A stretch of 6,335 nucleotides of DNA. Origin: Escherichia coli. GTDB taxonomy: Bacteria; Pseudomonadota; Gammaproteobacteria; Enterobacterales; Enterobacteriaceae. This document shows positions 1-6,335 of this stretch, piece by piece. The notes under the pieces are model-generated. The model saw nothing but the letters and a program-made list of their open reading frames with translations. It was not told where the DNA came from and did no database searches. Numbering within the stretch: position 1 is the stretch's first letter; each line of letters opens with the position of its first letter. The stretch is from the NCBI RefSeq assembly GCF_003334355.1, contig NZ_QOWP01000066.1; one strand, written 5' to 3'. Both the position numbers and the translations under genes were made by a program.

Positions 1-80
1 ATGCTTCCATCGGAAACGATGATCTGGCAGCCTGAGTTCACAGATAAAACACTCTCCAGGAAACCCGGGGCGGTTCACAA
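1..80. repeat. Left copy of perfect 80-bp terminal inverted repeat
   Basis: Positions 1-80 are the exact reverse complement of 6256-6335 (80/80). Identity breaks at position 81 versus 6255. Contains GTTCACA twice (36-42, 73-79) and the 12-mer TAAAACACTCTC (45-56). Confidence 0.97.
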
Positions 81-1200
81 TTATGCGGTTATATCGCTTA
101 CCTGCGGCCTCAATGAATTTTTGCTGCCCTTTAGTAGCAGACTCATAAAGCTGTTTATCTGAAATGCCTCCCAGACCATCGTTATATGTTCTGACCAGAT
201 TTTCCCGAGCCTGTTGTTGATTCAGCCTGTTCGTACCCGTTCCAAAAAAAGGAATTTTTTCGCCTGTTTTCTGGGCCAGACTCTGCACAGTGTTTTTATC
301 TTTCAGTACGTCACTGGTCATTAACGGTAGGTTTCTTTCCGATGCAAAATCAACAGCGGCTTTCGCTTCCGGTGCCATATCACCGCGAACGGCCCTCGAA
401 ACGGCACTCACTGTATTCTCCAGACCCTTACCAATGCCGCCAATGCCAGCAGAGATTACCGTTTGTAACGGATCAATATCTTCTCCACCAGCGAGGCTGG
501 TGGCTCCCTGTAGTGCTAAATCTGTAGCTGCTGATTTCCCTATGGCCCCCAGCACCGTTCCGGCCCTGCCCGCTGGTGTAAACGCCAGCGCATTAGCCAG
601 AAACGATGCCACGTCTTGCGGTGATAAACCCGGCTTGTTCAGAGCATAATCACCGGATGGTAGGGAAACGATAGTGTTACCCTTCTCATCCTGCCTTAAT
701 TTCGCTCCCATGCTCTGAAGAATCTTTTCCTGAGATGCGTCAGAGCCGAAAAGTTGAGACCATCGAGCTTTTAGAGCATCCATGCTGAGTGAGGTTAACT
801 CTGGGGCAAGGTCGACATTTTGCAGTCTCTCCATCTCTGGAGTCATTCGGCTTTCGCCTGTTATAGCATCGCGCATCGCAGCCCCAAGACTGGCTCCCTG
901 TTCTGCTGAACGTTCAAGCCCCTCTCTTTGCTGAGTCGCTAACTTTGCATACCCTGACGCAAGAGAATTATCAGATGATGTATGTTGAATATTTTGAGTT
1001 GCTGATTGGGCTCGGTCTATTTCATTCGTTGATGGTAGTGGATAGGCAGCATAAAAAGCCTGCTTAGCCTGCTCTACACTTTCTCCGGCTTGCGGGGCAA
1101 CGACTTCGTTGAAGTATTGCTCCTGAGCCTGCGCTTTTTGTTCTGGTGCTAACGCCTGATACTGTGGAGAGGCGATAACATCTTTCCATGCTTTAGCCAT
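1..1200 (-). CDS. Hypothetical protein, third gene of minus-strand operon; 400 codons in window, 3' end beyond window start (partial)
   Basis: ATG at 1200..1198 overlaps the TAA stop of the upstream gene by 1 nt (TAATG), implying translational coupling. SD-like GGGGTG lies 5-6 nt upstream. Hand translation of all 400 codons down to position 1 shows no stop (MAKAWKDVIASPQYQALAPEQKAQAQEQYF ... GKRYNRIIVNRPGFPGECFICELRLPDHRFRWKH). Ala/Gly/Gln/Ser-rich with no catalytic motif recognised. Absent from the ORF track, presumably because it has no in-window stop. Confidence 0.8.
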   Translation of the reverse strand, partial: MAKAWKDVIASPQYQALAPEQKAQAQEQYFNEVVAPQAGESVEQAKQAFYAAYPLPSTNEIDRAQSATQNIQHTSSDNSLASGYAKLATQQREGLERSAEQGASLGAAMRDAITGESRMTPEMERLQNVDLAPELTSLSMDALKARWSQLFGSDASQEKILQSMGAKLRQDEKGNTIVSLPSGDYALNKPGLSPQDVASFLANALAFTPAGRAGTVLGAIGKSAATDLALQGATSLAGGEDIDPLQTVISAGIGGIGKGLENTVSAVSRAVRGDMAPEAKAAVDFASERNLPLMTSDVLKDKNTVQSLAQKTGEKIPFFGTGTNRLNQQQARENLVRTYNDGLGGISDKQLYESATKGQQKFIEAAGKRYNRIIVNRPGFPGECFICELRLPDHRFRWKH

Positions 1201-2666
1201 TAATCACCCCATAGTGAAGAAAAGTTACTGCTGGCTGCTGGCTGTGATACCTGCTCAGATTGCGGCAATGTCTGCGACGAAGAAGAAGTTCCTCTGTCAA
1301 CTGCTGAAATAACCCGCAAAGCATCATAAGCTCGACCAGAAGCAGCTTTCAGCGAATTGAACTGGTTTTCCATCTTCCGGCGCTTGGTATCAATGGTTTT
1401 TGTGGAATCACCAGGCTGAGGGAAATACATTTGATAATATTTTGACATTTCAGCAGGTACGATAGCTGCCCCTGTTTCCTGACGGAGTATTGCCATTATT
1501 GCGTCATTAGCATTAACAACGTATTGCTGCTCTGTTGGGCTGAGCGTTAAGTTAGCCAGCGTCCCATTACCCAAAGCATTATTAATGATCGCCACTCGCT
1601 GTGGGCTAATCTGGCCTTTCAGTGTATCCATTGAATCAAGAGCATCCCTAACTCTGTATGCAAATCCAGCAGCTTTTTTAGCCCCTTCTGGCGACTTTTC
1701 CATGATCTTTTGAGCTGTTGGCAAAGCTATTAGACGAAACCCATCTCCAGATATTGGCTGGTTTAGTTTTCCCTGCTCTTCACTTCCGTCTGTGTAGTAT
1801 TTTGTGACAGTGCCATCATCGTTTTCCCTAACACTCATTAATTTTTTGGCGTTTGTATTAATTCCAGCCGCTGCCGCAAATGCCGCCGCCCCCTCTGGAT
1901 CCGCCTTTAACATTTGAGCGTACTGATTGTAATTCTGCATTGCTGCTGTTGGTGCATATGCTGACGTTAACGCATTTGCTCGGCTAATATCCTGCCCTCT
2001 CGCCTGAAGTGCTTCGCCAGCCTGATTGCTGCGGATTGTCTCTGCCAACTCGCCGCGCTCAATATCCCGACCTTCCATTTGATCTTTGATATCGAAATAC
2101 TTCTCATGACCGAGAGAAAACAGCGCCAGATTACCTGCGAAATGCTGGAAGCCCTGCGGGTCATTAACCTGCATTTCAGCAATAGTTTCTGGAGGGATAC
2201 CTAAACGACGCATCTCCTGCTCATTATCCATCATGAACCTGCCAAATGCGCCCGGACCAAGCGATGAGGCTACCTGTGCTTTGAGCGCCAGATTGCCATA
2301 ATCATCCCTTTGAGCATCATCGACATAACTCATCCCTTTACGGACTTCCTCAAACTCTTCTGGGAATGCTGTAATAAGATTACGCATCTGCTCCCTGTCG
2401 CCGGACGCATAAGCATCTGCATAACCTTTCTGGAATGCCGCTTTACGCTCCTGCTGTTGCTGCTGCTTATAAATATCAGCAACTCCAGCCAGACCACGTA
2501 ACGCGGTCAGACCAACGTTATTTGCACCTGAGCGAGCCAGTTCATTGTTTTCGCGGATCAGACCAAGCGTTGCGTTAATGTCGCTTGCCTTTGGCGCATT
2601 CTCGTTTTGCGTACCGATGCCAGCCAGAAAACCACCAGAATTAATACCCTGTTGCCACGTAGCCAT
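1200..2666 (-). CDS. Hypothetical low-complexity protein (488 aa from ATG), second gene of operon
   Basis: The ORF track gives 1200..2678 (492 aa) starting at a GTG that overlaps the upstream small ORF. I prefer the ATG at 2666..2664 (MATWQQGINSGG...), 4 nt after the TAA of the 57-aa ORF. Stop TAA at 1202..1200. Contains a QQQQQ run and Ala/Gln-rich segments. No Walker, HNH, integrase or nuclease motifs seen by eye. Confidence 0.85.
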   Translation of the reverse strand: MATWQQGINSGGFLAGIGTQNENAPKASDINATLGLIRENNELARSGANNVGLTALRGLAGVADIYKQQQQQERKAAFQKGYADAYASGDREQMRNLITAFPEEFEEVRKGMSYVDDAQRDDYGNLALKAQVASSLGPGAFGRFMMDNEQEMRRLGIPPETIAEMQVNDPQGFQHFAGNLALFSLGHEKYFDIKDQMEGRDIERGELAETIRSNQAGEALQARGQDISRANALTSAYAPTAAMQNYNQYAQMLKADPEGAAAFAAAAGINTNAKKLMSVRENDDGTVTKYYTDGSEEQGKLNQPISGDGFRLIALPTAQKIMEKSPEGAKKAAGFAYRVRDALDSMDTLKGQISPQRVAIINNALGNGTLANLTLSPTEQQYVVNANDAIMAILRQETGAAIVPAEMSKYYQMYFPQPGDSTKTIDTKRRKMENQFNSLKAASGRAYDALRVISAVDRGTSSSSQTLPQSEQVSQPAASSNFSSLWGD

Positions 2667-2670
2667 TGAT

Positions 2671-2844
2671 TTACCCACGTCCAGTTAAAGTGTAAGCCAG
2701 CGCCTTATCCATTAATCCCCGAGCAATTTCGTGGATCGTTGGCGCAACTCCTACCTCTGATTTTTTACGCTGCTCCTCCTGAATTTTCTTTATCGCTTCC
2801 ATTTGCTTCTCACTTATCAATACTGGCTTTACTGAAATAGCCAT
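2671..2844 (-). CDS. Small 57-aa protein, possible ribbon-helix-helix-like DNA-binding regulator (inference)
   Basis: ATG at 2844..2842 preceded by a strong SD (AAGGGGG, 4 nt spacer); stop TAA at 2673..2671. Translation MAISVKPVLISEKQMEAIKKIQEEQRKKSEVGVAPTIHEIARGLMDKALAYTLTGRG has a short N-terminal beta-like segment (KPVLIS) followed by two predicted helices, as in Arc/Mnt/CopG-type folds. Too short for the ORF track. Confidence 0.55.
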   Translation of the reverse strand: MAISVKPVLISEKQMEAIKKIQEEQRKKSEVGVAPTIHEIARGLMDKALAYTLTGRG

Positions 2845-2877
2845 AACGCCCCCTTAGAACTGTATAAAACAACAGTT

Positions 2878-2905
2878 ATTATAGTTTCACAAATCGCAAT
2901 ATTAA
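2878..2905 (-). promoter_or_regulatory. Candidate sigma70 promoter for the three-gene operon
   Basis: On the minus strand a perfect -10 TATAAT (plus-strand 2878-2883), a 16-bp spacer and a -35-like TTAATA (2900-2905, 4/6 match). The predicted start is about 25 nt upstream of the 57-aa ORF ATG. Confidence 0.4.
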
Positions 2906-2918
2906 TCATCGCAATTGC
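2893..2918. promoter_or_regulatory. Operator-like repeats overlapping the -35 region
   Basis: Direct repeat ATCGCAAT at 2893-2900 and 2908-2915 flanking the palindrome ATTAAT, plus the 8-bp perfect palindrome GCAATTGC at 2911-2918. Confidence 0.35.
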
Positions 2919-2939
2919 AAAATATGAAACAAATAGCAC

Positions 2940-2972
2940 AAAAAAATGCCACCGCTCAGTAGCTGGTGGCAT
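2940..2972 (-). terminator. Rho-independent terminator between the primase unit and the downstream operon
   Basis: Minus-strand RNA reads AUGCCACC-A-GCU-ACUG-AGC-GGUGGCAU followed by UUUUUU: an 11-bp GC-rich stem with one bulge and a 4-nt loop, then a 6-U tract. Lies downstream of the primase gene and iterons, and upstream of the operon promoter. Confidence 0.7.
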
Positions 2973-3166
2973 CGTTCTGTATGTCAGGTTTTGACAGGTT
3001 TTTTATGGACTCTAAAAACTATATTTATGGTGTCGCATTACTCTTCACGGCAGGCGCTTTCCAGTTCTGCCCTTGCTTCTGGCTCCATTGGTAATTTGAT
3101 TCGCGATCAGCTATGCGGATGGTTTGCTGAACAGGCATAACAACTTCTCAAAGGCTGTTTTTTGAA

Positions 3167-3183
3167 CTACGAAAATTTCGTAG
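3167..3183. promoter_or_regulatory. Palindrome CTACGAAA-A-TTTCGTAG, putative protein-binding site
   Basis: Perfect 8-bp inverted repeat with a 1-bp centre. Shares the TACGAAA/TTTCGTA half-site with the palindrome at 3222-3242. Confidence 0.35.
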
Positions 3184-3221
3184 TGCTCACTTTCAAAAAC
3201 GTCACGCCCTTGTACACAGGA

Positions 3222-3242
3222 TTTTACGAAAGTCTCGTAAAA
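3222..3242. promoter_or_regulatory. Palindrome TTTTACGA-AAGTC-TCGTAAAA, putative protein-binding site
   Basis: Perfect 8-bp inverted repeat with a 5-bp spacer. Overlaps the 12-mer TAAAACACTCTC (3238-3249), which also occurs in the terminal inverted repeat. Confidence 0.35.
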
Positions 3243-3291
3243 CACTCTCTGATGCCAGCCAGGTGTTGTGCGCATCAATTCAGTCACATTG

Positions 3292-3405
3292 TGTTGGTTC
3301 AAAATACCGTGTTGTTGGTTCAGTGTTGGTTCAATAAAAAGAATAAAATCCTTATAAAACAATACTCTTTACAAATTGAACCAACTGAACCAACTGAACC
3401 AACAC
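3292..3405. repeat. Iteron cluster, putative replication origin or cis-replication region
   Basis: TGTTGGTTCA at 3292-3301, 3313-3322 and 3324-3333 (21- and 11-bp phasing). A 43-bp AT-rich spacer (3334-3376). TGAACCAAC at 3377-3385, 3386-3394 and 3395-3403 in inverted orientation; the 11-mer GTGTTGGTTCA is perfectly inverted at 3395-3405. Starts 24 bp after the primase-helicase stop. Confidence 0.6.
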
Positions 3406-3428
3406 CTTTTCTACGCACATGAAGAAGC

Positions 3429-6185
3429 TCATTCTTCAGATGAGTTGTAATCTCCTGGCTGGTAATTGAGTACATAAACGTTTATTTGTCGTCCCTGAAT
3501 ACGTGGTGATTTTCTTTGGTATCCACGACCGCTGTTTGGTGGGGTTAGCATCCCGGCTTTTTTCAACACTTCAGCAAACTGTTTTGCGTTGAAACCACAT
3601 GCGATCTCCTTTTCAAATGTGGCCGGGAATGTGTAGAAAATCATTGGGCTTTCGTCATGTTCTCCACGCTGACGGTATCCGGCTAAATCTTTGATTGGCA
3701 AATCTGCCGGGCTGTATGGAAATGGTGCAAAACGGCTAAGCCCATAGGCATTAAGAAATGCCTCCGTTTGTTCAATAATCTGCTGATGTTCTTTGTTACC
3801 TGTGCCGAACTCGCGCAACCATGCGTTATAGCTGTGCTGTATCGCATCACGGCATGTCTGAGCATCCCAGCCTGTTACAACCTCGCCTAACAGCAATGCG
3901 GCCTCCAGAATGGCAAATCGCGCGGCTACACGGTGAACCTGCTCACCATAATCGGATGGAATCAGGCTTCTCCATCTGCTTTCGCAGTCACGAACAGTTT
4001 TAATAGCCTGTTGCTGGTGGTCTGCCAGCCATTTAATCCACTCACGCCCGGCTGCGCCGTGGTGATGCTGGTAAGCGTCTTTCAGTGCGTCTGCGTGCTG
4101 TTTTCCGTTCTGGTAATCGTGAAAGAGTACTGCTTTACTCAACGGAATATTCAGCAGTCGCACCAGTTGCCCGGCTTTGGTTTTTCGCCCGGAAGTAGCG
4201 ATAAATGTTTCTAAATCCATTTCTCCAGTGCTGATTGCCACTGTACGCCAGCGTTTTAGATCCCGGTTTCCACCATCTTTAGCGCCTTGCAGTTTCCCTA
4301 CACCGTTAAATAACGCATAGGCAGACTGTGAAACACTGACAGGATCAGCGCCCTGACCAACTTCATCAAGCGGCATTAGTCCGTCATTGTGGGCGGCGGC
4401 TTCATTTGCCAGCCCCAGCGCGGTTCCGTACCACGTCAGCCGCAGTAAATCAGGGTTGCCGTATAAGCTGCTCGCCACGTTTGCCGTGGTGGTCTTACCT
4501 GCGCTCGACTGCTCATAGAAATGAATGCCGAACCCGTCAGCGCCCACCAGCCCAATCAATGGCGCTGCCAGTGCTGCGCCGATCCCGGTCATCATTGAAT
4601 AGTTACCAAAGGCCAGACGCGCCACGTTATCACGCCAGCTTTTCGCGCTCCCTGAGACGGTATATCCGGCTGCGGCTGAGCTTCTCCCGCTGAACAGCAC
4701 AGGATTTTCAGGTGTTCCGATGATTTCCCCATCAGGCATGATGTACGCTCCGCATTGCCAGCCAGTGGCATGAGCAACACGCCACAATTCACGAGAGCCA
4801 CTGCGTTGTAGCCAGTCTGCCAGTATTGCTCTGAGGCTGCTTTTGGTCGTGACATTTACCCCACCAGCTTTAAGTGTGCGCCATCCTTCACGTTCACCAA
4901 TATCAGCCAGTGGAATGGCAGCGGTTGTCGGCGTTTCAGAACCAAACGACAGCCAGCGAAGAATGAGATACTGGTCTTTATCGTCTCTGCCAGTACCGAT
5001 AACGCTTAACGGAGAACATAACCAGCTTTCGTTATTGATGATTTCTCCACTCTGGCTGTCAGCTCTCGGAGATACCCAATAAATACCATCCTCGCGGCTT
5101 TCTATTCTTGGTTTCAGTGGGTCGGTATCCATAACCTTAAAATCGCTTCCCTCAATGGTCTGTGGCTGCTGTTTCACGCCATTACCCTGTGGTTGGTACA
5201 TTGACTTATTGAACGCTTCTGTGGCGCATTTAATGCCGTGTTTTTGGTGGTAATCATTCCAGTCTGCTTTGTGATCTGTCGGGGGTAATGCCACCCATCC
5301 AGAAACAGATAAAGCTGCTTTTTCTGCTGCTATTCTCCCCGTGTTTTGTCTTCCTTCGCTGTGGTCGTTATCCGCAGCAATGATGATTTGTGCTGAAGGA
5401 AATTTATCCCGCAGTACCTGGGCGACATATAACAGGTTCCCGGCATCAATCGCCGCCACTGTCAGCGATTCTGGACGAATTAAATGGGCAGATAATGCCG
5501 TTGCCAGCCCTTCTGCGATTAAGATGCTCTGTGTTGTTTCTGGTGCGTTTATGGCGTGATATGCCCCTCGCTTTGCTGAACCTGTCAGGAGTCTTTTTTC
5601 ACCATGTGAGGTAATAGTCTGTGCTGCTGTGACTGCGCCGGATTTATCCACCAGCGCCAGCAACAGAGATCCATCGGGCAACACTGGGAATGTAAAATCA
5701 CCTACCCCTTTCGCAACCAGATAATCAGATTTGCCGTTTACAGCCTTTCTGCGCATGTCATCAAACTGACGGGAAAACGTATCCCGTCTTTGTTGTTCGT
5801 CCTTCTCTGCCCTTTTCAGGCGCTCCTGTTCGCGTCGCTGGCGCTCGGTTTCCAGTTGTTCCCGTTTCTGGCTGGTGGCTTCTGGTGTTTCCGTTGTCCG
5901 GTAATCAATACCCAGAACATCAGCGGCAAGAAGCGCCGCCTCTGTTGTGTCGCAGTTATTTACGCGTTTAATTAAATCCAGCCCATCACCAGCGCCGCAC
6001 TGATTACAGATGAAGCTACCGCGCCCGTTGTCGTCGAACCGGAATCGATCTTTGCCCCCACATGCAGGGCAGGGAGCATGACGGCGAGGAGAGTCAGGGA
6101 CATTTATGTTCAGACAGCCCAGCACATGAGGCCAGTTGTTTTCAGACGCACTGATAACCTGACGGATAAGATCAATGTTTCGCAT
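3429..6185 (-). CDS. Primase-helicase, P4 alpha-like (zinc ribbon + TOPRIM + P-loop NTPase, 918 aa)
   Basis: ORF track 3429..6185. ATG preceded by SD ACGGGGG with a 5-nt spacer. Zinc-ribbon motif CPACGGKDRFRFDDNGRGSFICNQCG (aa 39-63, nt about 5997-6071). Charged linker ERQRREQERLKRAEKDEQQRRD. TOPRIM signatures IAEGLATA and IIIAADNDHSEG (aa about 220-300). Walker A-like SSAGKTT (aa 560-566, nt 4488-4508) and Walker B-like MPLDEVG. The architecture matches the P4 alpha and DUF927-type primase-helicases of satellites and integrative elements. Confidence 0.92.
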   Translation of the reverse strand: MRNIDLIRQVISASENNWPHVLGCLNINVPDSPRRHAPCPACGGKDRFRFDDNGRGSFICNQCGAGDGLDLIKRVNNCDTTEAALLAADVLGIDYRTTETPEATSQKREQLETERQRREQERLKRAEKDEQQRRDTFSRQFDDMRRKAVNGKSDYLVAKGVGDFTFPVLPDGSLLLALVDKSGAVTAAQTITSHGEKRLLTGSAKRGAYHAINAPETTQSILIAEGLATALSAHLIRPESLTVAAIDAGNLLYVAQVLRDKFPSAQIIIAADNDHSEGRQNTGRIAAEKAALSVSGWVALPPTDHKADWNDYHQKHGIKCATEAFNKSMYQPQGNGVKQQPQTIEGSDFKVMDTDPLKPRIESREDGIYWVSPRADSQSGEIINNESWLCSPLSVIGTGRDDKDQYLILRWLSFGSETPTTAAIPLADIGEREGWRTLKAGGVNVTTKSSLRAILADWLQRSGSRELWRVAHATGWQCGAYIMPDGEIIGTPENPVLFSGRSSAAAGYTVSGSAKSWRDNVARLAFGNYSMMTGIGAALAAPLIGLVGADGFGIHFYEQSSAGKTTTANVASSLYGNPDLLRLTWYGTALGLANEAAAHNDGLMPLDEVGQGADPVSVSQSAYALFNGVGKLQGAKDGGNRDLKRWRTVAISTGEMDLETFIATSGRKTKAGQLVRLLNIPLSKAVLFHDYQNGKQHADALKDAYQHHHGAAGREWIKWLADHQQQAIKTVRDCESRWRSLIPSDYGEQVHRVAARFAILEAALLLGEVVTGWDAQTCRDAIQHSYNAWLREFGTGNKEHQQIIEQTEAFLNAYGLSRFAPFPYSPADLPIKDLAGYRQRGEHDESPMIFYTFPATFEKEIACGFNAKQFAEVLKKAGMLTPPNSGRGYQRKSPRIQGRQINVYVLNYQPGDYNSSEE

Positions 6186-6197
6186 TCTGGCCCCCGT

Positions 6198-6335
6198 TTA
6201 GTGCGTCACTGGTGCTTCTGGGATGCCGTTTTCGTTTAGTTCGGCAATAAAGCTGTTGTGAACCGCCCCGGGTTTCCTGGAGAGTGTTTTATCTGTGAAC
6301 TCAGGCTGCCAGATCATCGTTTCCGATGGAAGCAT
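6198..6335 (-). CDS. Small ORF (45 aa) directly upstream of the primase-helicase; start may lie beyond the window
   Basis: ATG at 6335..6333 and TAA at 6200..6198, ending 12 nt before the primase ATG. Translation MLPSETMIWQPEFTDKTLSRKPGAVHNSFIAELNENGIPEAPVTH. The first 80 nt are the terminal inverted repeat. Operon-like spacing with the primase supports it, but it is short and without recognised motifs. Confidence 0.4.
   Translation of the reverse strand: MLPSETMIWQPEFTDKTLSRKPGAVHNSFIAELNENGIPEAPVTH
6256..6335. repeat. Right copy of perfect 80-bp terminal inverted repeat
   Basis: Exact reverse complement of 1-80. Confidence 0.97.

Follow-up and report, generated by a model that had tools for sequence, protein, structure and literature searches.

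Two dyads in an EcCIMP1-like island of Escherichia coli as probable relics of a palindrome built into phage anti-repressor genes

A stretch of 6,335 nucleotides (nt) of Escherichia coli DNA (contig NZ_QOWP01000066.1), hereafter the window, carries two short dyads in the spacer between a primase gene and genes for phage-type DNA ejection proteins. From nucleotide and protein comparisons, these dyads appear to be two vestigial copies of a palindrome built into the coding sequence of a phage anti-repressor family (phrog_1726), and the element that bears them is the relic of a known gene family inside a known type of island. In the live genes of this family, which share an N-terminal domain here designated as Ant-N, the arms of the palindrome appear to be constrained family-wide for base pairing, that is for hairpin or cruciform potential, with compensatory changes. 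The window itself is best described, on identity and synteny, as a piece of an EcCIMP1-like phage-inducible chromosomal island.

Both palindromes of the original prediction, CTACGAAAATTTCGTAG (3167-3183) and TTTTACGAAAGTCTCGTAAAA (3222-3242), are present as given, and the landmarks that flank them, a terminator-like hairpin on the minus strand and GTTGGTTCA iterons, are genuine. Palindrome 1 proved longer than first drawn (Table 1). The reported distance of 55 base pairs (bp) is correct from start to start and becomes 57 bp from centre to centre. The two spacers had been described as different; this depends on how the arms are drawn, and both dyads fit one 15-bp pattern, TACGA-N5-TCGTA (TACGAAAATTTCGTA at 3168-3182 and TACGAAAGTCTCGTA at 3225-3239), being identical at 13 of 15 positions. 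With at most one mismatch, the pattern occurs only at these two sites in the 6.3-kb window (expected count 0.07), and none of 200 dinucleotide-preserving shuffles of the window contained two matches. Read on the minus strand, palindrome 1 comprises the codons CAC TAC GAA ATT TTC GTA GTT (HYEIFVV) and palindrome 2 the codons TTT TAC GAG ACT TTC GTA AAA (FYETFVK). Palindrome 2 is a decayed copy of the form GTTTTACGAAAcTTTCGTAAAAC, with arms of 11 nt around a single central nucleotide (11-1-11), inner and outer pairs being lost with respect to live genes. The hairpins predicted for the two relic dyads have energies of -8.6 and -10.0 kcal/mol (z about -2 to -2.5), those of intact genes being stronger (-13.5 to -15.2 kcal/mol). 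Neither dyad was reported by a scan for intrinsic terminators, and on both strands a T run is absent after either.

The spacer had been taken as non-coding. No intact gene lies over the dyads, but the minus strand is the wreck of a protein-coding gene. A distant blastn search with the region 2940-3250 against plasmids and phages gave matches solely within anti-repressor coding sequences of unrelated phages (Shiga toxin (Stx) phages, P1-like plasmids and phages of Klebsiella, Acinetobacter, Shewanella and Pseudomonas), with palindrome 1 at the centre of every match. Around this palindrome 32 of 32 nt are identical in the P22-like Klebsiella phage phiKp_30, in a coding sequence (L004:2538-3266) of 242 amino acids (aa) assigned to phrog_1726, 'anti-repressor' (E=3e-100). 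The N-terminal ~105 residues of the phiKp_30 protein are homologous to P1 Ant1/Ant2, P7 Ant and the Ant of Stx phages. Two fragments of such genes were recognized in the window. Fragment B extends from ...LE.EH to RESK and was identified by nucleotide alignment to L027 and phiKp_30 and by BLASTP (RDVFESEHYEIFVVQKT against KDELEGEHYEIFVVQKS). Compared with intact genes, deletions of 9 nt and 1 nt just after palindrome 1 shift its frame, and the translation ...FYETFVKSCVQGRDVFESEHYEIFVVQKT is followed, past the resulting 10-nt deletion, by MPVQQTIRIADRES, corresponding to MSIKQALRVAARES of intact Ant. The 37-codon open reading frame (ORF) that begins with MPVQQTIRIADRES had no match in a PHROG search and is most likely not a gene. 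Fragment A is barely more than palindrome 2, and its best local alignment, to the ant genes L056, L058, L060 and L041 of IMG/VR, has one mismatch and one gap in 27 columns. Local alignment against 120 ant genes detected no ant homology in the DNA between the two fragments or upstream of them. The whole minus-strand frame reads ...PGWHQRV-FYETFVK-SCVQGRDVFESE-HYEIFVV-QKTAFEKLLCLFSKPSA, followed by a stop.

Homology to the Ant-N coding sequence was thus found in the correct frame, at both nucleotide and protein level, and both dyads lie at the site that is typical of the family, palindrome 1 being of the HYEIFVV type and palindrome 2 of the FYETFVK type. An intact Ant-N reading frame over the dyads was not found: stops and the 10-nt deletion interrupt it, and the N-terminal 50 codons and the C-terminal domain are missing, so that the stretch is a relic and not a member gene. 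Two other explanations of this stretch were rejected. The 83-aa and 37-aa ORFs of the minus strand were considered as genes, but their N-terminal parts differ according to the mosaic junction, no family match was obtained for them, and they are out-of-frame pieces of Ant. A tandem duplication as origin of the pair is contradicted by the lack of ant homology between the dyads, which moreover match different alleles. As to the domain itself, phiKp_30 Ant gave only a non-significant HTH_31 match in Pfam, a profile search of PDB sequences with the Ant N-terminal domain had no match, and Foldseek against the PDB returned nothing significant (best E=0.18, with weak winged-helix and KH look-alikes). 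NCBIfam assigns a name to none of the palindrome-bearing proteins.

In the live genes of nine annotated phages, including P1, APSE-7, a T1-like phage and phages of Acinetobacter, Shewanella and Pseudomonas, the site is palindromic whatever the peptide. It reads TACGAAATTTTCGTA in phiKp_30 and Stx2a_F451; TACGAAAGTTTCGTA in Acinetobacter phage Highwayman, Shewanella phage ZP9 and the T1-like E. coli phage CY1, where Ser is always encoded by AGT; CCTACAC-AAAAA-GTGTAGG, with peptide YTKSV, in Erwinia phage Midgardsormr38 and APSE-7; TTTTACAC-AAAAA-GTGCAAAA in P1; and TGCAA-AAAAA-TTGCA in Pseudomonas phage U8. As a safeguard against ascertainment bias, genes were also sampled blindly: the invariant RESKAVRR motif, which lies 85-100 nt downstream of the site, served as a codon-degenerate anchor, and 120 IMG/VR loci were obtained. 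They comprise 87 distinct segments and are not phylogenetically independent. In most of the sampled genes the site, 7 codons past DELxG, is a perfect, codon-aligned palindrome of up to 11-1-11. Its arms belong to the sets GGGT/ACCC, GTTT/AAAC, GACC/GGTC and GCAC/GTGC and its cores are GAAAnTTTC, AAAAnTTTT or ACAAAAAGT; genes of the Pseudomonas type have GGGGTGTGCA-7-TGCACACCCC, e.g., GGGGTGTGCA-gaaagat-TGCACACCCC. Further dyads of the sample are GGGTTACGAAAcTTTCGTAACCC, GTTTTACGAAAcTTTCGTAAAAC, GACCTACAAAAtTTTTGTAGGTC, GCACTACGAAAtTTTCGTAGTGC and GACCTACAC-aaaaa-GTGTAGGTC. In the Ant gene of the Stx2a_F451 locus, a second and smaller dyad, GCAATAATGATTTTATTGC (7-5-7; L006 1604-1622), lies over the conserved RNNDFIA codons, ~45 nt upstream of the main palindrome.

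The original prediction had proposed a covariation analysis in homologues, and in live anti-repressor genes the arms do co-vary. The analysis was performed on an ungapped alignment (A5) of 56 distinct sequences anchored on DELxG, with a structure of 11 pairs. Paired cells amounted to 87.8%, against 69% in shuffles and 33-47% when the 3' partner was slid; changes on both sides affected 120 cells (42 expected), and a covariation score of 0.464 was obtained, against 0.144, values reached in 0/500 shuffles in either case. Pairs 19-39 and 20-38 occur as all four Watson-Crick types. Arms of at least 8 nt were present in 59 of 84 site regions (70%) and in 0 of 84 downstream control regions of equal length from the same genes; synonymous-codon shuffles that keep the Ant-N peptide produced them in 3.7% of cases. 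The third positions of the TAC and GTA codons are invariant, and the RESKAVRR codons vary freely at synonymous sites. Outer-arm types assort independently of core types, and blocks of 3-4 adjacent pairs are swapped symmetrically between variants. In a structured-strand test, A.C and G.T mismatches were about equal, with few events (roughly 4 against 3).

A covariation acting at the protein level was also considered and rejected. In an AlphaFold2 model of the Ant-N domain (predicted local distance difference test score of 80), the encoded peptide forms part of an uninterrupted beta strand (residues 58-63), and in this single strand the symmetric residues would not be cross-strand partners. A second copy of each gene's own palindrome was searched for in ~850 kb of phage DNA flanking 92 ant genes and none was found, which indicates that the palindrome is not a dispersed operator. 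No Rfam family covers the palindrome in seven loci with intact genes, and literature searches found no description of these palindromes.

Perfect dyads are not confined to Ant-N genes. When the 1.07 Mb of retrieved phage DNA were scanned for dyads whose arms measure at least 10 nt, most of the intragenic ones, besides terminators, fell within other anti-repressor-type genes, assigned to phrog_245/5060, phrog_129/63 and phrog_377 (AntA); we read phrog_245/5060 as Bro-N-like and phrog_129/63 as KilA-N-type. The kilA gene of P1 has an 11-4-11 dyad (L005 2601-2626). Single examples of perfect dyads with arms of 10-12 nt in KilA-N- or Bro-N-like genes are located at L017 2039-2063, L114 4039-4063, L030 13510-13534 and L108 1396-1420. 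For AntA, a second blind sample was drawn from IMG/VR using the DYHLTLDxAKELAM motif as anchor. Most members have a hairpin 40-60 nt upstream of DYHLTLD, with arms of 9-14 nt and a loop usually of 6 nt, and many of the stems co-vary (TTTGCTTTCC/GGAAAGCAAA, GTTTGATTCCCC/GGGGAATCAAAC, TTATTATTTCCC/GGGAAATAATAA, CCGCTCGCC/GGCGAGCGG). Arms of at least 8 nt were found in 40/64 site regions versus 1/64 control regions, and in 2.3% of synonymous shuffles. A perfect 10-0-10 dyad, TTTCCCCAAATTTGGGGAAA, is also present in the coding sequence of the live antA/AntB gene of the island itself (Table 1). The Stx2a_F451 locus has AntA-type dyads at L006 2716-2741 and 3256-3277; in the same locus, two strong matches to the Rfam family sRNA-Xcc1 (RF02221; 64 and 74 bits) lie at L006 2420-2509 and 2960-3045, immediately upstream of its two AntA-type genes.

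An RNA hairpin needs no complementarity right to the centre, and many variants of the Ant-N palindrome have it (11-1-11, 11-0-11). Together with the equal share of A.C and G.T mismatches and the symmetric block swaps, this fits a process at the DNA level, such as template switching, better than stepwise RNA compensation. Our best guess for the live genes is a DNA-level hairpin or cruciform that would be generated and re-perfected by template switching during replication. On the other side, the fixed site over deep divergence, the occurrence in two domain families and the decay in dead copies speak for an additional effect of selection tied to the live gene. Whether the live-gene palindrome has a real cis function is, in our judgement, evenly balanced. 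The case stands just as level for the two dyads being relics of an undescribed class of cis element, namely a codon-aligned hairpin palindrome under selection in the coding region of the anti-repressor N-terminal domain. Such an element would act on the expression of its own gene or as a preferred recombination point, and its range would comprise Ant-N and AntA genes, for which population samples are available, and Bro-N-like and KilA-N-type genes, for which the sequences give single examples.

The fate of the dyads in related islands bears on their meaning in the window. No further copy of the motif was found in 12-24 kb of island DNA (islands L001-L003), including the surroundings of the regulator genes. 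Islands of the L003 type carry the same relic next to a different primase (DUF5906) and different origin repeats. In the variant L134 the origin of the window is kept, and ~3050-3232 is replaced by an unrelated 152-aa gene, so palindrome 1 and half of palindrome 2 are missing. The dyads being found with another origin in L003 and missing beside the same origin in L134, their membership in the replicase module is not borne out; the origin module goes with the type of primase, irrespective of the dyads. The alternative cassette of L134 (2686-3144, E. coli FMU073332) encodes the hypothetical protein WP_032235469.1, with a Shine-Dalgarno-like GGGAG upstream. Among eight island sequences, uncompensated substitutions were observed in palindrome 2 of L003, L207 and L208 (G->A) and in palindrome 1 of L210 (A->G), and the density of substitutions in the dyads is similar to that of the flanks.

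Palindrome 2 also marks the edges of these exchanges. Homology with L003 stops at its outer edge, homology with L134 resumes at its centre of symmetry (coding strand GTTTTACGAAA|TCTGAAC), and the ant homology of the window stops 5 nt past its other edge. In the viral contig L071 (~2000-2020; IMG/VR_UViG_2721755829_000002), an IS903-like end (...TTATTCAACAAAGCC) abuts the right half of an Ant-N palindrome (ACAAAAAGTGTAAAACCC); judging from these sequences, an IS903-like element is inserted at the palindrome centre in this unrelated contig. Among 100,044 species genomes searched for the double dyad, 71 stretches were obtained, nearly all unrelated and many of them from Prevotella; the arrangement with the 72-nt span of the window was seen outside E. 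coli only in one other Escherichia sp. genome, in a copy of the same island. The double pattern with a span of 84-86 nt is seen in many contigs of Prevotella/Bacteroidales (among L136-L206), and 28 pattern matches, among the matches listed ~140-270 nt apart, occur in the Chitinophagales contig L197 (3289-4464); both sets are apparently unrelated.

The interior of the window, whose genes are all on the minus strand (Table 1), matches E. coli chromosomal islands with int, an AlpA-like helix-turn-helix gene, antA, ash, a TOPRIM/DUF927 primase, P22-like ejection proteins and PerC. In complete genomes the block sits in an island of ~17 kb at tRNA-Thr/proA or yicC, of which the window holds only the part from primase to ejection proteins. 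Region 2840-3440, with both dyads, is 98% identical to EcCIMP1 of E. coli MP1, an island for which induction and transfer by the P22-like phage Kapi1 have been demonstrated experimentally (PMC11773190). In a term search of that paper, a replication origin or iterons are not mentioned, and 'antirepressor' is used only for the annotated gene of EcCIMP1 (PMC11773190).

In the putative replication origin, GTTGGTTCA units lie on the two sides of an AT-rich core (3335-3374), three of them direct (3291-3334) and three to four inverted (3375-3405). In EcCIMP1 (L329 18390-18500) a 10-nt insertion adds one more AAAATACCGTGTTGTTGGTTCA unit, and in islands of the L003 type unrelated repeats of the CCTGTAC type take the place of the GTTGGTTCA iterons. 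The terminator-like hairpin would end the primase-operon transcript after the dyads have been passed. The sigma-70-like promoter at 2905->2878 precedes the 57-aa ORF and the genes of the ejection proteins; it is overlapped by an imperfect 17-nt dyad, GTTTCACAAATCGCAAT / ATTGCAAAATATGAAAC (2884-2900 / 2914-2930), with ATCGCAAT repeated at 2893 and 2908, and this dyad is a better operator candidate than the two reported ones. An 8-3-8 dyad, CCACCAGCGAGGCTGGTGG, is present at 485-503 inside the gp16-like gene and also in L002. The terminal 80-nt repeats match ends of the insertion sequence (IS) family IS3 (IS1203/IS629-like) in thousands of plasmids, and the contig is a piece of the island that ends on both sides at an IS copy or at an assembly break in such copies.

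Table 1. Features of the window and, in the last rows, island copies of the antA/AntB dyad. Figures such as 9-1-9 are lengths of arm, spacer and arm in nt.
Feature	Position	Strand	Description
IS3-family end	1-80		perfect 80-nt inverted repeat with 6256-6335
gp16-like protein, start	ending at 1200	-	cut by IS end
P22 gp20-like DNA ejection protein	1200-2678	-	context gene
57-aa ORF	2671-2844	-	context
Sigma-70-like promoter	2905->2878	-	TTAATA-16-TATAAT; only one in 2600-3600
Intrinsic-terminator-like hairpin and T run	2940-2971	-	GCCACC(11 nt)GGTGGC; hairpin 2971-2949
37-codon ORF	3025-3138	-	out-of-frame continuation of fragment B
Fragment B	3095-3196	-	relic of N-terminal domain, 'EHYEIFVVQK' type
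Palindrome 1	3166-3184		ACTACGAAA-A-TTTCGTAGT, 9-1-9
Fragment A	3217-3243	-	isolated 27-nt scrap, 'FYETFVKP'-type allele
Palindrome 2	3222-3242		TTTTACGA-AAGTC-TCGTAAAA, 8-5-8
Putative replication origin	3291-3405		directly downstream of primase gene
TOPRIM and DUF927 primase/replicase, 918 aa	3429-6185	-	context gene
TTTCCCCAAATTTGGGGAAA, island L002	18410-18429		copy of antA/AntB dyad
TTTCCCCAAATTTGGGGAAA, island L003	19808-19827		copy of antA/AntB dyad
TTTCCCCAAATTTGGGGAAA, island L001	11420-11439		copy of antA/AntB dyad

The original prediction had offered two operator sites for a dimeric regulator or an RNA structural element, with P4-like immunity RNAs in mind. The presence of two near-identical 15-bp dyads (TACGAAAnTnTCGTA) 57 bp apart, far above chance, would suit a pair of operators for a dimeric regulator of the island, its helper phage or the host, and their architecture is indeed the same. 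This reading is nevertheless very improbable: there is no promoter in reach to regulate, as no sigma-70-like promoter is found within or beside 3140-3260 on either strand and the nearest is >260 bp away beyond the terminator; no other copy of the motif is found in the island or near its regulator genes, nor of the genes' own palindromes around the 92 ant genes; the two sites come from two different gene scraps and are not a designed pair; and L134 dispenses with them. Moreover, in the live genes it is pairing and not the half-site that is conserved, the arms co-varying to position 11 with the outer 4 bp included, a pattern expected from base pairing and not from recognition by a protein. Slightly less credible still is a small regulatory or immunity RNA gene of the P1 C4 / P4 CI type with the dyads as stems, notwithstanding the Icd-like gene that is found elsewhere in the island family and the strong minus-strand terminator ~200 nt downstream. 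The stretch has no Rfam match even at E<=1 (RF01695, RF03163; clan CL00128), where the same search, as a positive control, found the C4 RNA and its targets in P1 (68.8 and 51 bits); no promoter-like site is present, and the sequence is accounted for base by base as a gene relic. We infer from these comparisons that the island dyads have neither operator nor small-RNA function. Of the proposed structural element one part holds, the parent genes being constrained for pairing with compensatory changes, but the copies in the window are vestigial.

That the palindromes are due to chance, or are a by-product of the amino acid sequence alone, hardly deserves credit. A Y-E-x-F-V peptide can be encoded palindromically, TAC/GTA and GAA/TTC being reverse-complement codon pairs, but shuffling of the window never gave the pair, long arms are far more frequent than in peptide-keeping shuffles, and the palindrome persists in lineages whose peptide is altogether different (YTKSV, GVCRKIAH). 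A better case, though an unlikely one, can be made for dyads that still function as hairpins, either in stability or processing of the 3' end of the primase-operon RNA or as a DNA crossover point for cassette swaps. Both dyads fold and are located, on the transcribed strand, after the primase stop and before the terminator; two independent mosaic junctions fall at palindrome 2; and in an unrelated contig the centre of the same palindrome is the exact site of an IS903-like element. However, the relic stems are weaker than those of live genes, uncompensated changes pile up in the island copies, L134 does without the dyads, and passive, hairpin-stimulated illegitimate recombination predicts breakpoints at palindromes equally well.

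We therefore prefer, as the quite probable explanation, that the dyads are vestigial and were inherited with recombined anti-repressor scraps in a variable slot, palindrome 2 being a recombination scar and both being passively transcribed. The scraps would have arrived by recombination with DNA of P22-like or lambdoid phages and settled in the variable cassette slot between the replication origin and the primase-operon terminator. Hairpin-forming palindromes may attract breakpoints, which would leave palindrome 2 as a scar at the edge of the slot, and the dyads would simply be transcribed as part of the 3' region of the primase operon. Several observations weigh against this explanation. The ~10 island sequences compared are 95-100% identical and so are a weak test of constraint, and the 9-1-9 arms of the relic palindrome 1 are as good as those of some live genes. 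The position of the dyads on the primase-operon transcript, before the terminator, may have an effect at the RNA level, e.g., on 3' stability, and the two independent junctions at palindrome 2 could reflect a use in cassette exchange instead of a passive scar. No island with an intact Ant-N gene in the slot was found, the order of events being reconstructed, and the IMG/VR sequences on which the family comparison draws lack phylogenetic independence.

With the dyads assigned to vestigial gene scraps, a false lead is removed: a hidden pair of operators or immunity RNA is not to be expected between the origin and the late genes, the DNA there being a variable cassette slot littered with scraps of phage genes. 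For short intergenic palindromes of mobile elements, a six-frame homology check is advisable before they are labelled as operators. More generally, widespread phage regulatory genes change amino acids to keep pairing, a clean instance from nature in which the structure of the nucleic acid takes precedence over the protein sequence. Should the palindrome have a function, genes that trigger prophage induction contain a control or recombination element that has so far escaped notice; should its origin be purely mutational, it is a telling case from nature of how template switching makes and keeps hairpins in coding DNA. Hairpins of such kind have been reported as the trigger of Lamassu/DdmABC (PMC11707656), and if the cis-element reading is true, anti-repressor genes carry hairpins that are sensed by some defence systems.

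With EcCIMP1, the island of the window shares the gene order (primase, dyad spacer, small ORF, DNA-transfer/ejection proteins, PerC) and, in its relatives, the proA/tRNA-Thr insertion site; it differs in being cut on both sides by IS3-family elements and in lacking the DUF2824 and gp7-like genes. Fragments A and B are homologous to the N-terminal domain of phrog_1726 Ant at both nucleotide and protein level, and their dyads have the same site, 7 codons past DELxG, in the strand that comes first after helix 2 in the predicted structure. Unlike the Ant of phages, the gene of the window is dead (no start, truncated at 5' and 3' ends, frameshifted) and consists of pieces of two alleles 25 nt apart. 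For operators, terminators, iterons and C4/CI RNAs alike, some defining features were looked for and are lacking, which places the palindrome outside these classes. Short paired dyads of equal architecture are common to the operators of phage regulators (lambda/P22 repressor, Mnt, Arc), but here they are without promoter, further copies or cognate regulator, and pairing is conserved instead of sequence. The P1 C4 and P4 CI RNAs share the setting of the dyads, that of satellites and P1-like immunity regions, in which small RNAs control ant genes; no match to their sequence or structure is present here, and P1 C4 is located upstream of icd-ant and not inside ant.

The closest parallel is with coding palindromes. 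Conserved perfect inverted repeats and coding palindromes are thought to be made and maintained by template switching during replication (Lavi et al. 2018, PMC5941160; Mikhailov et al. 2019, PMC6649704; Monttinen & Loytynoja, PMC8794818), and those of nematomorph mitochondria are perfect inverted repeats within ORFs (PMC6649704). The family-wide coding palindrome of Ant-N is a further case of these known, rare perfect inverted repeats within ORFs. The Ant-N palindrome differs in being one codon-aligned element of 15-27 nt at a fixed site and not a genome-wide feature, and for it template switching is only proposed. It shares with coding palindromes perfect arms within an ORF, kept across orthologues beyond codon expectation and changing together on both sides, and swaps of blocks of 3-4 pairs that are hard to reach via single compensatory steps, and it has an analogous site in AntA-type genes.

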